In this document: positions 46,480-57,105 of the stretch, piece by piece | How the letters are laid out: every line of letters begins with the position of its first letter | Position numbering within the stretch: the first letter of the stretch is position 1 | The notes under the pieces: model-generated | Databases searched by the model: none | Told to the model about the DNA's origin: nothing | Seen by the model: the letters and a program-made list of their open reading frames with translations, nothing else | Assembly: GCF_017854565.1 (NCBI RefSeq) | Contig: NZ_JAFMHJ010000010.1 | Span: 9,307-73,306 of the forward strand | Source: Yoonia sp. | GTDB lineage: Bacteria; Pseudomonadota; Alphaproteobacteria; Rhodobacterales; Rhodobacteraceae | DNA length: 64,000 nt | Direction: 5' to 3' | Program-made: the position numbers and the translations under genes

Positions 46480-46554
46480 CGCAAAAAAGGACTCGACAGG
46501 TCGCGCACTGCAGGCCTACAAATGAACAAGCGTTCAATTAACCGGGAGCGAGCG

Positions 46555-47718
46555 ATGTTTCACGCCTCAATGACTTTTGATCTGGGCGAGGATGTGAATG
46601 CCCTGCGCGATATGGTGCATGGCTGGGCGCAGGCCCGCGTCAAACCCATGGCCGCCGACATTGACCGCAGCAATGCCTTTCCGCCCGCGCTGTGGCAGGA
46701 AATGGGCGACCTTGGCCTGCTGGGTGTCACCGTGGCCGAAGAATACGGCGGGGCTGGCATGTCCTATTTGGCGCACACAGTCGCAGTCGAGGAAATCGCC
46801 CGCGCCAGCGCATCGGTGTCGCTGTCGTATGGCGCGCATTCCAACCTGTGCGTCAATCAAATCAAGCTGAACGGGACTGACGCGCAAAAGGCGAAATACC
46901 TGCCGCGTCTGATATCGGGCGCACATGTGGGCGCATTGGCCATGTCCGAGGCCGGCGCCGGGTCTGACGTGGTGTCCATGTCGCTGCGCGCGGAAAAACG
47001 CAACGACCATTACCGCCTGAACGGCAATAAATATTGGATCACCAACGGTCCCGACGCGGACACGCTGGTGGTTTATGGCAAGACCGACCCTGATGCCGGA
47101 TCAAAGGGGATCACCGCATTCCTGATCGAAAAGGACATGGTGGGTTTCACCACCAGCCCGCATTTCGACAAGCTGGGGATGCGCGGTTCCAATACCGCCG
47201 AGCTGATCTTTGACGATGTGCAGGTGCCGTTCGAAAATGTGCTGGGCGAAGAAGGGCGCGGCGTGCGCGTTCTGATGTCGGGTCTTGATTACGAACGTGT
47301 CGTGCTGGCGGGGATCGGCCTTGGCATCATGGCCGCCTGTCTGGACGAGATCATGCCCTATCTGGCCACGCGCAAGCAATTCGGCCAACCGATTGGGAAC
47401 TTTCAACTGATGCAGGGCAAGATTGCGGATATGTACACCGCGATGAATTCCGCCCGCGCCTATGTCTACGAGGTTGCCAAGGCCTGCGACCGGGGGACCG
47501 TCACCCGGCAGGATGCGGCGGCCTGCTGTCTTTACGCCAGCGAAGAAGCGATGAAACAGGCGCACCAAGCCGTGCAAGCGATGGGCGGGGCCGGGTTCCT
47601 GAACGACGCCCCGGTCGCGCGCCTGTTCCGCGATGCCAAGCTGATGGAAATCGGGGCGGGCACATCCGAAATCCGTCGCATGCTGGTGGGCCGTGAATTG
47701 ATGGGGGCGATGGGGTGA
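46555..47718 (+). CDS. ivd: isovaleryl-CoA dehydrogenase
   Basis: ORF 46522..47718. ATG 46555 follows GGGAG. It is acyl-CoA dehydrogenase-like throughout and its context (mccB, mccA, HMG-CoA lyase) fits leucine catabolism. Confidence 0.9.
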
Positions 47719-48638
47719 AGGATTCGGACGTTCAAAGGCACGTGGATGATTTGGAGCGTCAATGCCTTGAGAGCTTGGACCCGTTTGCCCATTTCGTCCT
47801 TCTCGATTCCGTTGACACGTTTAATCCGTTGCCATTTGCGATTTCTGATAAGATCACGGGCGAAACAATTTCAGATCATCCAATAAGCGATGTCATTAGG
47901 CTGTCGGAGAGCAAAAGGCAGGATAGCGTAAAGGCCCTAAAGCGAGTATTTCGCTATTTCTCAAGCGAAACCCTCGTTTTGATGCTGTTGTCAGGGCGAC
48001 CACTGGGACCTTTTGTACGGCTCTCAAATGTCCTCCGAGGGAAAAAATTGGATGATACTTTCAAAAGTATTGCTCGGAAAGAAGTCCCGGAAGGTTTTGC
48101 GTTGAAGTTCGAGGGACAACCCTTGTCATTTGAAAAATGGATTTCTGAGAGGATAACTGCCGATCCGGATTGGCTTTCCGAGAACGGGTCCGGACAGATT
48201 GCAGACCTTATTGTGGAAGAGGCCGCAATGCTCTCGAATCGAGGAACGATTAACGCCTTCAAGCATTGCAGACCATTTTCGCATGCGAACAGTCCCGAAG
48301 TCGTGGCTACACCAAAGGACGGAGAGCGTCGACCGCTAAACGAAACTTTGAATGGTATCAATTGGATGGAATGGAAAGAAAACCAAGATACGATCACTCT
48401 GTCATACTTATCCGAAGAGATTGAAGATGGGCACGACCAACAGCGTCTTTTCAGCATCGGGTTGCTTCTGGACAGTCTGAAGCGTTTGCGTCTAGCCCAG
48501 CTTGGGGGAGCCGTTGAGAATTTCGAACTCATTTTGCCCACAGATATGAAAACTGGCTTGCGAGTAAGGCACCAGAAAATCGCGATCAAATACGCTTCGT
48601 CAGAGAGTGTTGAGACACTGCATGGGGCGAATGAATGA
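47715..48638 (+). CDS. orphan hypothetical protein (307 aa) encoded on a low-GC insert
   Basis: The GTG start overlaps the ivd stop (GTGA) and the stop overlaps the next ATG (ATGA). Amino-acid composition is ordinary, but the DNA is visibly AT-richer than both flanks. I recognise no motif. Confidence 0.6.
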
Positions 48639-48934
48639 AACGCTGGATGATCTTCGCACCTGTCGCGGGATTGGCGGTTTTTGCTGCTGTATTGGGCCTG
48701 CGTCTGGGCGGACAACCCAGCGAGACGGATATCATCAACCGTTATGCCGCGGCCTATTTGGCGACAGCGGGCGTGGGTGCCAAACCGACCGATTGCGCCG
48801 CGACCACGCACCCCGATCCAGCGGTGCGGATGGTGGTGACCTGCAGCCATGCCAGCGGTGTGGTGACGACTTTTTTCGTGGGGCGACGGGGCGAAACGCT
48901 GCCGTTTCCCGATCAAGGGGAACCCACCACATGA
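48635..48934 (+). CDS. 99-aa membrane-anchored hypothetical protein
   Basis: N-terminal TM helix [26 protein letters not shown] overlaps at both ends (48635-48638 and 48931-48934). Normal high GC. Confidence 0.5.
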
Positions 48935-50493
48935 CACAGGTCGATGCACATTTGGCCGCACTTGAACAGGTCGCCGCTGCTGCTGCTGCTGCCGCCCTTG
49001 GTGGCGGTGAAAAATCCCGCGCGCGCCATATCAGCCGGGGCAAGATGCTGCCGCGTGATCGGGTCGCGGGCCTGCTTGACCCCGGCAGTCCGTTTCTTGA
49101 GATCGGCGCGACTGCGGCCCATGGCATGTACGACGGTGCGGCACCCTGTGCGGGTGTGATTGCCGGGGTGGGCCGCGTAAGCGGGATCGAGGTGATGGTC
49201 GTGTGCAATGACGCGACGGTGAAGGGTGGCACCTACTACCCCATGACGGTCAAGAAACACCTCAGGGCACAGGAGATTGCCGAGAAATGCCATCTGCCTT
49301 GCGTCTATCTGGTGGACAGCGGCGGTGCCAACCTGCCCAATCAGGACGAAGTATTCCCGGACCGTGACCATTTTGGCCGGATTTTCTATAATCAGGCGCA
49401 GATGTCGGCCAAGGGTATCCCGCAGATCGCGGTCGTCATGGGGTCCTGCACGGCGGGCGGCGCCTATGTGCCGGCGATGGCGGATGTGTCGATTATCGTC
49501 AAGGATCAGGGCACGATCTTTTTGGCTGGGCCGCCGTTGGTCAAAGCCGCCACCGGCGAGGTGGTCAGCGCCGAGGATCTGGGCGGCGGTGATGTGCATA
49601 CGCGCCTGTCTGGCGTCGCGGATTACCTTGCCGAGGATGACGCCCATGCGCTGGCACTGGCGCGGCAGGCCATCGCATCATGTTCGCGTGAAAATGCGAT
49701 ACAGGTCAAACGGTTGCCTTCCGAACCTCCGACACTTGACCCGGCGACTTTGTTCGATGTGGTGCCCGCCGATTTGCGCACGCCCTATGACATTCGCGAG
49801 GTCATTCGCCGGGTTGTGGATGGGTCGCGGTTTGATGAATTCAAGGTGCGCTTTGGCGAAACGCTGGTGACGGGCTTTGCCCATATTGACGGCTGGCCAT
49901 GCGGGATTGTGGCCAACAATGGCGTTCTGTTTTCGGAAAGCGCGCAAAAGGGTGCGCATTTCATTGAACTGTGCAGCCAGCGCAAAATCCCGCTGGTGTT
50001 CTTGCAAAATATCACAGGCTTCATGGTCGGTCAGAAATACGAAAACGAAGGCATCGCACGGCATGGGGCCAAGATGGTTATGGCCGTGGCCACAACGAAG
50101 GTCCCCAAGATCACGATGGTTGTCGGCGGTTCCTTTGGCGCTGGGAATTATGGCATGTCAGGAAGGGCTTACAGCCCGAATTTCATGTGGTCATGGCCCA
50201 CGTCGCGGATTTCCGTGATGGGTGGCGCGCAGGCCGCTGGTGTGCTGGCGACGGTCAAACGTGATGCAATTGAACGGGGTGGCGGGACATGGTCAGCCGA
50301 CGAAGAAGCCGCGTTCAAGCAGCCTACGATTGATATGTTCGCGGAACAATCGCACCCGCTGTATGCCAGCGCCCGGCTCTGGGACGACGGCGTGATCGAC
50401 CCCCGCAAATCCCGCGAGGTGCTTGCGCTTTCACTGTCCGCCGCCTGCAACGCGCCCATAGAGGAGACACGCTTTGGCGTGTTCAGGATGTGA
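48931..50493 (+). CDS. mccB: methylcrotonyl-CoA carboxylase beta (carboxyltransferase) subunit
   Basis: ORF 48607..50493, ATG 48931 ([14 protein letters not shown]...). Carboxyltransferase motifs ([36 protein letters not shown]). Confidence 0.9.
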
Positions 50494-50498
50494 GCCGC

Positions 50499-52409
50499 AT
50501 GTTTGACAAGATTCTCATCGCCAACCGGGGCGAGATTGCCTGTCGCGTGATCCGCACCGCGCGCGCCATGGGGGTCAGGACGGTGGCCGTTTATTCGGAT
50601 GCGGACGCCGACGCCCTGCATGTCGCCCAAGCGGATGAGGCGGTGCGCATTGGCCCGGCCCCCGTCGCCGAAAGCTATCTGCGGGGTGATCTGATCATTC
50701 AGGCAGCCTTGGAGACCGGCGCGCAGGGGGTCCATCCCGGCTACGGCTTTTTGTCCGAGAACCCGGATTTTGTCGATGCGGTGACGGCGGCGGGGCTGGT
50801 TTTCATTGGCCCTTCGGCCAGCGCCATCCGGGCGATGGGGCTCAAGGATGCGGCCAAGGCGTTGATGGTCAAGGCGGGTGTGCCTGTGGTGCCGGGCTAT
50901 CACGGCACAAATCAAAACCCCGACTTTCTGGCCGGTGAGGCCGACCAGATCGGCTATCCAGTTTTGATCAAGGCGGTCGCGGGTGGCGGTGGCAAGGGGA
51001 TGAGGCTGGCACAAAGCGCCGCCGACTTTGCCGAGGCGCTGGCGTCGGCGCAGGCCGAGGCGCGCACTGCGTTTGGCAATGCCGATGTGCTGGTTGAAAA
51101 ATATGTCACGTCACCGCGCCACATTGAGGTGCAGGTCTTTGGCGATGGCACCGACGCTGTGCATCTTTTCGAACGGGACTGTTCGTTGCAGCGCCGCCAC
51201 CAAAAGGTGATCGAGGAAGCCCCTGCGCCGGGGATGACCGATGCGGTGCGCCGCGCGATGGGCGATGCGGCGGTGACGGCGGCCAAGGCCATCGGCTATG
51301 CCGGTGCGGGTACGATTGAATTTATTGTGGATGGGGCGGGCGGGCTGCGCACAGACGGGTTCTGGTTCATGGAAATGAACACCCGGCTACAGGTCGAGCA
51401 TCCGGTCACAGAGGCGATTACCGGCGTTGATCTGGTGGAATGGCAACTGCGCGTCGCCAGCGGTGAGCCATTGCCCGCAGGGCAGGACGATTTGGTGATC
51501 AATGGGCATGCCTTCGAAGCGCGGCTTTATGCCGAAGATGTCCCGAAAGGGTTTTTGCCTGCGACCGGCGTGATTGATCATCTGCTATTTCCGGATTCGG
51601 CGCGGATTGACAGCGGTGTCGTGGCCGGGTCCGAAATCTCGCCTTGGTACGACCCGATGATTGCCAAGATCACGGTGCATGGGCGTGATCGTGCGACGGC
51701 GCTACGGGGGTTGTCGGCGGCGCTGGATGCCACGCAGGTTGCTGGTACGGTCACAAATCTTGGCTTTTTGCGCAGGCTGTCGCGAGATAAGGGTTTCGCT
51801 GCAGGACGGGTCGATACCGGGTTGATCGCCCGCCAAGAGGCGGTTCTGTGCGCGGTCGCCGTGGCGATGCCGCACGATCTGGCGATTGCTGGCGTGGTTG
51901 CGGCTGGTGTTGATCGTGGCGCGTTCACCGGGTTTGCGCTGTGGGCGCCATTGGCGCGGGACATTCTGCTGATGTATGAGGGCGCGCTGGTGACGGCGCG
52001 TCTGACGATGCAGGGTCCCGACCGCTGCGATGTTGCGGTGGCGGGCGCCTTGGTGTCGCTGACATGGCGCGGCGATCATTGGGGCGTGCCTGCGGTGCGC
52101 CATGGGCGCCGGGTCACGGTGTTCGGCGCGCAAACCCTGACCTTTGACATCGTTGATCCGCTGGACCGGGGCGTTGATGCCATGGGGGGCGATACGGTGC
52201 TGGCGCCGATGCCGGGGCTGGTGCGCGATGTGGCGGTTGCAGTGGGGCAGGCGGTTGCCGAAGGGGACCGGATGGTGGTGCTTGAGGCGATGAAGATGGA
52301 GCATGTCTTGCGCGCGCCGCGTGACGGTATCGTGTCAGCGGTTTTGGTGGTCGCCGGCGATCAGGTGACGGCCGGGGCCTTGATGGTGGCGTTGGAGGAC
52401 GCAGGATGA
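50499..52409 (+). CDS. mccA: methylcrotonyl-CoA carboxylase alpha subunit (biotin carboxylase plus BCCP domain)
   Basis: MFDKILIANRGEIACRVIRTA N-terminus (alternative GTG at 50490). C-terminal biotinylation motif EAMKME. Confidence 0.92.
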   Translation: MFDKILIANRGEIACRVIRTARAMGVRTVAVYSDADADALHVAQADEAVRIGPAPVAESYLRGDLIIQAALETGAQGVHPGYGFLSENPDFVDAVTAAGLVFIGPSASAIRAMGLKDAAKALMVKAGVPVVPGYHGTNQNPDFLAGEADQIGYPVLIKAVAGGGGKGMRLAQSAADFAEALASAQAEARTAFGNADVLVEKYVTSPRHIEVQVFGDGTDAVHLFERDCSLQRRHQKVIEEAPAPGMTDAVRRAMGDAAVTAAKAIGYAGAGTIEFIVDGAGGLRTDGFWFMEMNTRLQVEHPVTEAITGVDLVEWQLRVASGEPLPAGQDDLVINGHAFEARLYAEDVPKGFLPATGVIDHLLFPDSARIDSGVVAGSEISPWYDPMIAKITVHGRDRATALRGLSAALDATQVAGTVTNLGFLRRLSRDKGFAAGRVDTGLIARQEAVLCAVAVAMPHDLAIAGVVAAGVDRGAFTGFALWAPLARDILLMYEGALVTARLTMQGPDRCDVAVAGALVSLTWRGDHWGVPAVRHGRRVTVFGAQTLTFDIVDPLDRGVDAMGGDTVLAPMPGLVRDVAVAVGQAVAEGDRMVVLEAMKMEHVLRAPRDGIVSAVLVVAGDQVTAGALMVALEDAG

Positions 52410-53056
52410 TCCGGTTGCATCATTGCCATCAGACCCGGTCGATGCGCAGCCTTTGGTTGCTGCACGAGATGGGCATTGATTTTGATCTGGTTGTTTATCC
52501 GTTCGACAAGACGCTGCGCGAAGAACCGTACCGTTCACTGAACCCCACGGGCCGGGTGCCGACGCTTGAGATTGACGGCGCGGTTGTCACCGAAAGTGGC
52601 GCCATTGCCGAAGTGTTGTGCGAACGGTTCCCGGCGGCGGGTCTGGGGCGTGCGCCGGATGACGCAGAGCGCATTCCATGGCTGAACTGGATTCATTTCG
52701 CCGAGACGATCAGCCAACATTGTGCCGCACTGACCCAGCAGCACGTCGCATTGCGCGAAGATCAGATGCGGTCACCCATTGTGATGCAGCTGGAGGCTAG
52801 GCGGTTGGCCAAGACATTGGGCGCAGTGGAGGCCGGGTTGCGCGGTGACTGTCTGCTGGCGTCGTTTTCGGCGGCTGATGTCGGGATCGGGCAGGCCGTT
52901 TATATGGCGGCGCATTTTGTCCGGTTAGATGGGTTTCCGAAGGTGGCTGCATGGTTTGATCGGCTTCAGGCGCGCGCAGCATATCGCATGGCGCTGCCGG
53001 ATGAGCCCGGACTTTATCTGCGTGATTTCTATCCACCTTGGGATCTGCCGCAATGA
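52406..53056 (+). CDS. glutathione S-transferase family protein
   Basis: 216 aa. The ATGA start overlaps mccA. The N-terminus is thioredoxin-like (SMRSLWLLHEMGIDF...NPTGRVPTLEIDG..VTESGAI). Confidence 0.8.
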   Translation: MIRLHHCHQTRSMRSLWLLHEMGIDFDLVVYPFDKTLREEPYRSLNPTGRVPTLEIDGAVVTESGAIAEVLCERFPAAGLGRAPDDAERIPWLNWIHFAETISQHCAALTQQHVALREDQMRSPIVMQLEARRLAKTLGAVEAGLRGDCLLASFSAADVGIGQAVYMAAHFVRLDGFPKVAAWFDRLQARAAYRMALPDEPGLYLRDFYPPWDLPQ

Positions 53057-55671: not shown

Positions 55672-57105
55672 TCACTGAACGGGCTGCGCTGTGTCCATGA
55701 CGCGGACAAGAGCCATGCGTTCGGCATAGAATACAGGTTGCGCGCCCCCCTGCTGTTTGGCGCGATACATGGCCATATCGGCCCGTGCGAGTAGTTGCGC
55801 CCAACCAAGGTTCTTTTCTGCCATGGCAACGCCGATTGCGGGGCGTATGATGTGGCTGTAGTTCCCAATGTGTATGGGCGGTGTCGTGTGCCGGATGATC
55901 CGGTTCGCCACATGCTCGGCTGCCTGACAGGGGGCGTCATCCAAGAGCAGGCACACAAATTCGTCGCCGCCGATCCGGGCGACATAGTCATTGCCGCGCA
56001 CAGCCGCGCGCAAGCGTTCGGCGACAACTTGAAGCGCCATATCCCCGGCGTCATGGCCCATGTTATCGTTGAGCTTCTTGAACCCGTTGAGGTCCAGGTA
56101 AATCACGGCGGCGTGGCCTTCGGCCAATGCATCGGCGACCCGTGGCAACCGTAGAATATCGTCCAGCCCCGCGCGATTGACCAAACCTGTCAGCGTATCG
56201 GTACGCGCCAGTGACTTTTCGCGGAGCAATGCCGCCGTTTGCCGTGCCGACGCTCTGCCGACGACTGTCGTCGCAACCAACGTCAGCAAGGACAGAAGGC
56301 CAATGATTGGCAGGGCCGATGACAATAGCCGCCGACCCGGTCGCGGGGCATCCCAGCTGAGGTGGCCAATAGCCGTCCCCGCAGGGCCGTCAATCTCCAA
56401 AACAGCCTTCCCGTGTATGACGGAAGTATCCGCCGTTTGAAGCTGGACATTTGTGATCATGAGCAGCGCGCCAATCGCGCTCAGACGATCCGGGTTAAGC
56501 CACTTGCCGCCAACCATCATCGGCAGTTGCGTGGCCTGAAATCCTGTGGTGTCGGTGCTTTGGATGCGCCCAGCCGCCAGTACGGCGAGTTGCCCGCCAA
56601 TCCGTGCATAATGCGATATCGTTGTGTAGGGTTCCATGGGCTGCGCCGATAACGTCAGCCGCAGTCGATCGGTCAGTGCGGTGTCAACGATGGAGGTGTC
56701 GGACGCTTCGCCATCCGTCTGGTACGCATAGATGGGCTGGCCATCGGACCCAAGGACATAGATAAAGTCGAAGGTTGCGCCGTCCGTGGCGCCGGTGCCG
56801 AAATTTGTGAAAAATGCGTCGTCATCGCGGGCGATGAGCAGATCAGAAGCAAGGTCCCAATAAGCGTAGTCTTGGGTGCTGATTGCCACACTCAGCAGTT
56901 CTGCCTGAACGGCGCTGTCCATCAGGCTGACCGCGTTTTCCGACGCAATGACATCAACCTTGCGCGCCATCCAGAATGTCATCGCCAGAATGACCAGGAT
57001 TGCGGTCACGCCATTCCCGACAGAGGCCCAAAAAATGCGCCGTGGCAGGCGATGCACTTCGTCCTGATCGGGTGGTGATGATGTCATCTCGTTTTTCATG
57101 TGCAC
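55672..57105 (-). CDS. membrane-bound diguanylate cyclase: CHASE4-like periplasmic sensor plus GGDEF domain with an intact I-site
   Basis: 477 aa. TM, a periplasmic domain with QDYAYWDLASD (CHASE4-like), a second TM, then a GGDEF domain. RGNDYVARIGGDEF carries RxxD at canonical spacing. Confidence 0.85.
   Translation of the reverse strand: MHMKNEMTSSPPDQDEVHRLPRRIFWASVGNGVTAILVILAMTFWMARKVDVIASENAVSLMDSAVQAELLSVAISTQDYAYWDLASDLLIARDDDAFFTNFGTGATDGATFDFIYVLGSDGQPIYAYQTDGEASDTSIVDTALTDRLRLTLSAQPMEPYTTISHYARIGGQLAVLAAGRIQSTDTTGFQATQLPMMVGGKWLNPDRLSAIGALLMITNVQLQTADTSVIHGKAVLEIDGPAGTAIGHLSWDAPRPGRRLLSSALPIIGLLSLLTLVATTVVGRASARQTAALLREKSLARTDTLTGLVNRAGLDDILRLPRVADALAEGHAAVIYLDLNGFKKLNDNMGHDAGDMALQVVAERLRAAVRGNDYVARIGGDEFVCLLLDDAPCQAAEHVANRIIRHTTPPIHIGNYSHIIRPAIGVAMAEKNLGWAQLLARADMAMYRAKQQGGAQPVFYAERMALVRVMDTAQPVQ

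Follow-up and report, generated by a model that had tools for sequence, protein, structure and literature searches.

How does a gene of low GC content come to lie, with overlapping start and stop codons on both sides, inside a conserved leucine-catabolism operon, and what kind of gene is it? The case considered here is a 307-codon open reading frame (ORF), ORF307, abbreviated X below, in the liu operon of Yoonia sp., a marine member of the Rhodobacteraceae, where it lies between ivd (isovaleryl-CoA dehydrogenase, IVD) and mccB (a subunit gene of 3-methylcrotonyl-CoA carboxylase, MCC). The stretch analysed, called the window, comprises 64,000 nucleotides (64 kb) of RefSeq assembly GCF_017854565.1 (contig NZ_JAFMHJ010000010.1, positions 9,307 to 73,306 of the forward strand). 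Our favoured answer, held with belief and doubt in equal parts, is that X is a mobile promoterless single-gene cassette, probably conflict-related, which owes its expression to the liu operon and is probably exchanged via the conserved flanks. The frame and its two junctions are as follows.

47715..48638, + strand: X (ORF307), an AT-rich cassette and 307-amino-acid (aa) member of a family of ~300-aa proteins (ORF list, GC content, relatives and AlphaFold2 (AF2) model)
47715..47718, + strand: GTGA, X start codon overlapping the ivd stop codon (read from the sequence)
48635..48638, + strand: ATGA, X stop codon overlapping the start codon of the next gene, orf99 (read from the sequence)

The 307-codon frame that had been proposed from the sequence alone was confirmed at these coordinates, and the coupling overlaps described for both of its ends were read directly. 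Family N-termini agree better with the 307-aa start than with a 298-aa start (GTG 47742), which occurs in one member of the cluster. The low GC content, originally judged by eye, was computed as 0.479 (0.55, 0.38 and 0.51 at codon positions one to three, GC1 to GC3), against a GC of 0.607 and a GC3 of 0.747 in ivd. The 51 long ORFs of the window have a GC of 0.599±0.027 and a GC3 of 0.679±0.065, from which X (GC3 0.510) deviates with z-scores of about -4.4 and -2.6, respectively; it is the sole ORF below 0.53 GC among them, and the lowest-GC 900-nucleotide (nt) segment of the whole 64 kb begins at 47751. Sliding GC over 300 nt falls from 0.63–0.65 to 0.47–0.49 across X and returns to 0.63–0.66 after it, and the drop matches the ORF boundaries. 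X is thus the strongest compositional outlier of the window, as the sequence-only reading had it, and the acidic, soluble-type protein which that reading expected agrees with an isoelectric point (pI) of 5.41 and a grand average of hydropathy (GRAVY) of -0.39, i.e. an acidic and hydrophilic product.

A consensus scan of the AT-rich insert for a promoter or terminator of its own gave no excess over shuffled sequences; the overlapping position of the gene makes hitch-hiking on liu transcription and translation, already suggested earlier, the natural reading. The reported lack of mobility functions and tRNA genes nearby also held: no integrase or transposase domain was found in the 22 called genes within ±10 kb of X, and neither a tRNA nor an Rfam RNA family was found within the window. 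An antisense frame of 335 aa (47954..48961, - strand) was considered as a gene and rejected; it covers both AT-rich and native-GC segments, is also uncalled in an identical metagenome contig, and the family conservation described below sits in the + frame.

Searches of X against Pfam, NCBIfam and PHROGs returned no match, and PADLOC returned a chance-level match alone (TPR model, E 0.017). A word-indexed search of 5.8 billion clusters recovered just the query's own cluster with its 5 near-identical members, and the same type of search with a profile added one further member (P0044). The family emerged when 1.84 billion cluster representatives were scanned exhaustively with HMMER, which yielded 53 relatives (counted as 50%-identity cluster representatives), 13 of them at E ≤ 1e-30; nearly all are 265–325 aa long and align end to end. 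Contig collections were scanned with a profile of X's 10 closest sequences. In an alignment of 42 sequences R80, E85, K183 and H184 are invariant and P125, F139, W142, E169, N180, D241 and R259 nearly so, and the family signatures can be written as R-[YF]-x-[SA]-[SA]-E and E-E-A-x5-R-x3-N-[AS]-x-K-H-[GC]-[KR]. The two motifs map to the window as follows.

47943..47972, + strand: motif 1, residues 77–86, with R80 (47952–47954) and E85 (47967–47969) (alignment; helix 68–92 of the model)
48240..48269, + strand: motif 2, residues 176–185, with near-invariant N180 and invariant K183-H184 (48261–48266) (two family alignments; helix 177–183 of the model)

Structure prediction with AF2 from a single sequence was unusable (predicted local distance difference test, pLDDT, 36); prediction with the 42-sequence alignment gave a pLDDT of 94.4 and a predicted template modelling score (pTM) of 0.90. 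In this model the N-terminal two-thirds are helical and are followed by a sheet of four to five strands that packs against a long helix. X is a real and intact gene, because 53 relatives of similar length share its conserved motifs and the model has a pLDDT of 94.4; the family and the model exclude a spurious ORF. Foldseek comparison of the model with 350,542 PDB chains and with BFVD gave no neighbour at E ≤ 0.001, the best matches (among them PP7/Qβ coat proteins, Rogdi and RdgC; E ~0.05–1, TM score 0.1–0.15) being noise. The family profile detected no relative among PDB sequences; an HpcH aldolase match in a PDB profile search (E 0.45) was spurious. The 42 members gave nothing beyond chance in Pfam, PADLOC and PHROGs (best E in PADLOC-DB v2, 0.017), and no description of the family was found in the literature searched by accession and topic. 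The family is therefore rare and has neither annotated sequence relatives nor a structural neighbour in PDB or BFVD. The earlier description of X as an orphan with no nameable motif stands as far as the libraries go, in which no match exceeds chance, and fails in the strict sense, as there are 53 relatives.

The invariant R80, E85, K183 and H184, together with the near-invariant E169, N180, D241 and R259, point to a putative enzyme active site. A HEPN ribonuclease was considered and rejected, since the R-x4-6-H pattern is not present: the family has [ILVF]-N-[AS]-x-K-H, with a hydrophobic residue before the asparagine, and the candidate arginine, R176, is not invariant and stands 7 residues before H184. 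A Pfam search of the 42 members up to E 1 returned no HEPN-clan model, and Foldseek against PDB gave no match at E up to 0.001.

Sixteen distinct contexts of X were recovered, 12 in the ivd-mccB interval of Rhodobacteraceae and 4 elsewhere. The order ivd-X-orf99-mccB is found in the window and in the identical metagenome contig (L001), and acyl-CoA synthetase-X-mccB in Ruegeria arenilitoris (L015); further liu-embedded copies are those of Pseudophaeobacter leonis (L088), Loktanella agnita (L094) and the loci L082/83, L084, L085/86, L087, L089, L095, L096 and L097. The family tree is star-like, and the 12 liu copies are spread over five or more of its deep clades. All lie on the operon strand, and their junctions are stop/start overlaps or spacers of 0–19 nt on either side, except for one junction in L084, where mccB starts further downstream. 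Within the interval X occupies several sub-positions: after ivd, after the acyl-CoA synthetase gene, and before or after orf99. For the comparison of this interval the conserved flanks and the intervening gene were defined as follows.

46522..47718, + strand: ivd (isovaleryl-CoA dehydrogenase, LiuA), left conserved flank (Pfam Acyl-CoA_dh_N/M/1, E down to 5e-44)
48635..48934, + strand: orf99, 99 aa, with an N-terminal hydrophobic helix and a native GC of 62% (ORF list)
48931..50493, + strand: mccB (MCC carboxyltransferase subunit), right conserved flank (Pfam Carboxyl_trans, 3e-152)

The gene downstream of X is thus not mccB, as the earlier reading implied, but orf99 (48635..48934), whose stop is overlapped by the mccB start codon (ATG at 48931). 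The ivd-mccB interval was compared in 80 species representatives, namely those with the most similar IVD (78–93% identical to the window ivd product, all Rhodobacteraceae). Across the 80 species ivd and mccB are between 48 bp and about 5 kb apart, and the interval holds more than 40 unrelated ORF clusters. Its occupants include an AMP-binding acyl-CoA synthetase (29 of the 80 loci), LprI-domain proteins, OmpW, small secreted proteins and orf99, which is a frequent occupant in relatives; X itself was detected by the family hidden Markov model (HMM) in 1 of the 80 liu loci. These data show in part that the interval is a hot spot of gene turnover within an operon, devoid of mobility genes. As a side observation, the slot between the acyl-CoA synthetase gene and mccB, which X occupies in R. 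arenilitoris and P. leonis, contains other small proteins in related species, with apparent signal peptides in Ruegeria profundi (L012:9497-9973), L020:9539-9985 and L026:9548-10051; one slot protein is the product of a 158-aa ORF that is likewise low in GC (48%).

The nearest relatives of the window locus (L002 and L005, IVD 92–93% identical) have ivd followed directly by orf99, without X, and the junction of ivd and orf99 in L002 is a stop/start overlap like that between ivd and X in the window. This arrangement supports the view that X is an insertion relative to these relatives. L. agnita, with an IVD 94% identical, has the order ivd-LprI-orf99-X-mccB, i.e. X on the opposite side of orf99, and its X belongs to another deep clade (~34% identity over 191 aa and ~20% in the family alignment), while the 97-aa L. 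agnita counterpart of orf99 is 65% identical to that of the window. The window X is closest (42–43%) to copies in hosts whose IVD is 80–82% identical, and P. leonis carries X where two congeners with 95–96% identical IVD do not. Clade and position in L. agnita, the hosts of the closest X and the congeners of P. leonis call for independent entries or exchange of alleles, not simple vertical descent; it is shown in part that different deep clades of X entered the interval independently. Many X-bearing metagenome contigs are 1–1.5 kb long and end inside ivd and mccB, as would be expected if strains with and without X coexist.

These comparisons bear directly on the alternative that X is an old liu resident, inherited vertically, mostly lost, and drifting towards AT while evolving fast under weak selection. 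The same interval is indeed filled across genera, the tree is star-like with long branches, and X identity and IVD identity correlate weakly and positively (Spearman 0.31, p 0.07). Nevertheless we hold this alternative to be very improbable: the host with the closest IVD (94%) has an X of another clade across orf99, the closest X copies are in hosts with IVD just 80–82% identical, presence and absence differ within genera at 95–96% IVD identity, and the strongly conserved, catalytic-looking residues and the confident fold oppose weak selection. Homologues at the same position, which the sequence-only reading would have taken as a mark of an ancestral operon member if found across the whole family, do recur in 12 contexts, but the gene is present in just 1 of the 80 related species. 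A recurrent slot combined with carriage by 1 in 80, and with clades on opposite sides of orf99, indicates neither an ancestral operon member nor a one-off import.

The AT-richness of X is likewise not peculiar to the window. The liu-embedded copies have a GC of 41–51% in hosts of 58–70% GC, every one of them 9–19 GC points below its host, and the X of L096 (L096:4352-5182) has 31% GC and a GC3 of 0.23 in a host locus of 46% GC. Since divergent members in different genera all lie 9–19 points below their own host, AT-richness is a standing trait of the family relative to its host and not the signature of a fresh import. That X remains far below its host even at 46% GC counts in favour of the old-resident alternative, as it suggests long residence rather than a single donor pool. 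Horizontal acquisition, as proposed earlier, is accordingly retained as insertion relative to L002 and L005; recent import from a low-GC donor is too simple, X being AT-rich in every liu host. By way of method, low GC is here no proof of recent import.

A 12-nt direct repeat bracketing X had been taken as a possible trace of insertion at the ivd terminus. The two copies are as follows.

47701..47712, + strand: left repeat copy, the native, conserved ivd 3' end (ATGGGGGCGATGG ends ivd in relatives with and without X)
48622..48633, + strand: right repeat copy, within the C-terminal extension of X (…LHGANE), 9/12 matches in register

Both sequences, ATGGGGGCGATG and ATGGGGCGAATG, are present at the coordinates given, with 9/12 matches in register and 11/12 with one indel, so the observation itself stands; as an insertion scar the repeat is at chance level. 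The best local (Smith-Waterman) alignment of the 40-nt junction regions scores 7, which 36% of random 40-mers equal, and the 12-mer occurs with two or fewer edits at about 17 other sites in the window. Transposition-like insertion of X with duplication of the ivd terminus would leave such a scar, and in its favour both 12-mers exist, repeats extended to 17–18 nt take in the stop codons, and the empty site of L002 resembles a single repeat copy abutting orf99. Against it, besides the chance-level score, no terminal inverted repeats were found at X, no transposase is present, and the junction repeat occurs in 0 of the eight other X loci compared. Transposition with target duplication is essentially refuted and receives next to no weight. 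A further direct repeat, TGGGGCGA…GAAACGCTG (18/23; window 48623–48645 and 48879–48901), brackets most of orf99; it overlaps the X/orf99 junction and is probably a chance occurrence.

Four contexts lie outside the liu operon. In L098 X lies downstream of rmuC, again with a stop/start overlap, and in L090 it adjoins a serine resolvase gene. Two homologues on rhizobial plasmids each stand head-to-head with a STAND-NTPase defence candidate. That of Neorhizobium galegae pNgVX faces a PDC-S73/nSTAND3 protein (L093:6182-7798, - strand; E 4e-128), in a neighbourhood that also has DUF4145 and an AAA_13 fragment, and that of a Phyllobacterium zundukense plasmid faces an Avs4-like/PDC-M54A-like protein of 1703 aa (L092:2545-7656, - strand). 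A specific X-STAND gene pair was considered and rejected, the two STAND proteins being unrelated beyond the P-loop, and the defence-island setting is seen for these two plasmid homologues and not for the 12 liu-embedded copies. Separately, L. agnita carries a gene for a 282-aa HNH protein wedged between mccB and mccA (L094:6701-7549, JBJMBF010000006.1; Pfam HNH 2e-7, weak PADLOC match to type IV methyl-directed restriction, 1.5e-4). At 48% GC, between flanks of 60–63%, this gene is the second AT-rich insert of a liu operon that also bears X.

The rarity of X, its fast divergence beside slow flanks (liu members are ~20–43% identical to each other, against 79–94% for IVD), its AT-richness, the catalytic-looking residues and the plasmid STAND-NTPase neighbours suggest a conflict-type enzyme, i.e. 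a defence, abortive-infection or selfish effector and not a step of leucine catabolism; the AT-rich HNH insert of L. agnita with its weak restriction match was also counted as relevant. We regard this assignment as roughly a coin toss. A defence or conflict role is the best available guess from the plasmid STAND neighbours and the one resolvase neighbour, and the defence- or toxin-like module suggested at first sight survives to that extent, while no known defence or toxin family is matched. Like single-gene anti-phage and abortive-infection genes, X is rare, fast-evolving, AT-rich and solitary, with plasmid homologues beside STAND-NTPases; it differs from them in that 0 of 42 members match PADLOC and in its location, since most copies sit inside a catabolic operon and not in an island.

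The opposite view of the same contexts is that X is a liu accessory protein (an enzyme for a side activity, an MCC chaperone or regulator, or a detoxifier) that has repeatedly been recruited for co-expression. The ivd-mccB interval accounts for 12 of the 16 contexts, in which X always follows the operon strand, is tightly coupled and in several cases immediately precedes mccB; independent insertions into one operon are what functional coupling predicts, and a pathway-linked AMP-binding acyl-CoA synthetase gene occupies the interval at 29/80 loci. A consistent co-occurrence with liu is nevertheless not seen, X being present in just 1/80 related species with intact liu operons, and X diverges far faster (20–43% identity) than IVD (79–94%). 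Homologues without liu genes are found after rmuC, beside a resolvase gene and in plasmid defence neighbourhoods, Pfam and NCBIfam searches revealed no CoA-, cofactor- or biotin-related domain and no homology to LiuA-E, and the interval also houses unrelated cargo (LprI, OmpW, small secreted proteins), with the HNH gene at the next junction. On balance a liu accessory role is unlikely, though it keeps an appreciable minority share of our belief.

A third possibility has its parallel in phage genomes. The free-standing homing endonuclease genes (HEGs) of T-even phages, seg and mob, are compact or promoterless, lie between conserved genes, are patchily distributed, have a lower GC and show borders without repeats. 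X shares with them the insertion between conserved genes and the sporadic presence (12 contexts, 1/80 species, differences within genera). X could accordingly be pictured as a free-standing homing-type selfish enzyme that cuts or nicks the X-less allele close to the ivd/mccB junction and is copied in by repair once X-carrying DNA has reached the cell, for example via gene transfer agents (GTAs). Judged from general knowledge its anatomy is HEG-like, with an ORF-precise position between conserved genes and overlapping start/stop codons; repeats and mobility genes are lacking, X is patchy in occurrence and AT-rich, divergent clades share the slot, an HNH-domain gene lies at the adjacent mccB/mccA junction in L. 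agnita, and the invariant E/K/H/D/R residues are compatible with phosphodiester chemistry. Homing is nonetheless quite improbable. Neither Pfam nor PDB sequence nor Foldseek comparison detected similarity to HNH, GIY-YIG, LAGLIDADG, PD-(D/E)xK or EDxHD enzymes, so that X, unlike seg and mob, has no nuclease domain or fold match; its host is a cellular chromosome, it occupies several sub-positions (after ivd, after the acyl-CoA synthetase gene, before or after orf99), the flanks showed neither a consistent polymorphism nor a co-conversion tract, and a single target site does not agree with the solitary copies on plasmids and after rmuC. A bolder version, which we rate a long shot, is that X founds a new class of self-propagating operon-embedded cassettes and promotes its own copying into the X-less ivd/mccB interval, by intron-less homing that would ride on GTAs or other DNA exchange among Rhodobacteraceae. 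If true, a housekeeping catabolic operon would be the habitat of a chromosomal selfish element.

Our preferred reading, the mobile promoterless cassette, can be put as a series of steps. From the anatomy of the locus, X would be transcribed within the polycistronic liu mRNA (ivd-mccB-mccA-...), translated by coupling to ivd termination at the GTGA, and would pass ribosomes on to orf99 via the ATGA; this coupling would leave the host operon intact at little cost. Once DNA has been transferred, homologous recombination in the strongly conserved ivd and mccB on either side would be the most likely route by which X spreads. Several results weigh against this reading. Neither homology nor a fold match connects X with a known family of defence proteins, toxins or nucleases; a single metabolic operon harbours 12 of the 16 contexts, and neighbourhood logic favours a link to leucine catabolism; neither a pattern scan of IMG/VR viral contigs nor tblastn against GenBank phages detected viral relatives. 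Sliding identity along ivd near the junction, a test of low power, showed no anomaly and no recombination or co-conversion tract, and transfer among GC-rich hosts alone does not account for the persistent AT-richness.

Hot spots of horizontal gene transfer (HGT) often lack mobile elements and recombine at flanking core genes, and operons seldom take up new genes in their interior (Oliveira et al. 2017, PMC5635113). The ivd-mccB interval shares with such core-flanked hot spots its variable content, the lack of integrase and transposase genes and plausible recombination in the flanks. It differs in lying inside an operon, between co-transcribed pathway genes, and the X inserts differ in their ORF-precise fit with overlapping stop and start codons. 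The phenomenon is therefore of a known kind, accessory cargo in a core-flanked hot spot; new is that the slot lies within an operon and is reused by a dedicated AT-rich family whose fold has no neighbour in PDB or BFVD. Integron cassettes offer a second comparison: like them, X is a single ORF that lacks a promoter and is read from one further upstream, and it sits in a fixed slot whose occupants can be exchanged. Unlike them, it has no attC-like element, its stop codon overlapping the next start and inverted repeats being absent, and no integron integrase is encoded nearby.

An interval of a conserved catabolic operon thus serves as a recurrent landing slot for AT-rich cargo, free of mobility genes and with the operon undamaged, which is unusual because foreign genes are thought to avoid operon interiors. 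Should the cargo be defensive or selfish, core metabolic operons could be hidden reservoirs and expression platforms for conflict genes, and the slot would be a tractable system for the spread of cassettes through conserved flanks, driven by recombination or by GTAs. The family is a clean target for work on structure and function, being compact and confidently modelled, with invariant residues that look catalytic, and three cultured carriers are available (L. agnita, P. leonis and R. arenilitoris).

The operon continues downstream of mccB with the second MCC subunit gene.

50490..52409, + strand: mccA (biotin carboxylase/biotin carboxyl carrier protein subunit; Pfam CPSase_L_D2, Biotin_carb_N/C and Biotin_lipoyl)

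The mccB-mccA gap is also variable (69 loci among L001–L081; median 123 bp, up to about 2 kb). In L089 (9281-10355) this junction contains three small ORFs, one of which encodes an ASCH-domain protein. A glutathione S-transferase gene (window 52406–53056) separates mccA from the HMG-CoA lyase gene of the liu operon; it is also found in the liu operons of L001, L089 and L094 and appears to be a stable, clade-specific operon member.

In Paracoccus and Rhodobacter the nqo/nuo operon is interspersed with unidentified reading frames (URFs), so the same bacterial order tolerates unrelated ORFs between the genes of a conserved operon, as is also the case for the nuo operon of the window. Unlike X, the genes intercalated there are not compositional outliers. 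The nuo operon near the liu genes carries such unrelated intercalated genes, since a GGDEF and a sulfotransferase gene lie within it; their coordinates were taken from the identical contig L001 and shifted by +37714. The CHASE4-GGDEF gene is antisense between nuoA and nuoB (window 55672–57105, - strand), and the Sulfotransfer_3 gene follows nuoC (window about 58431 onward).

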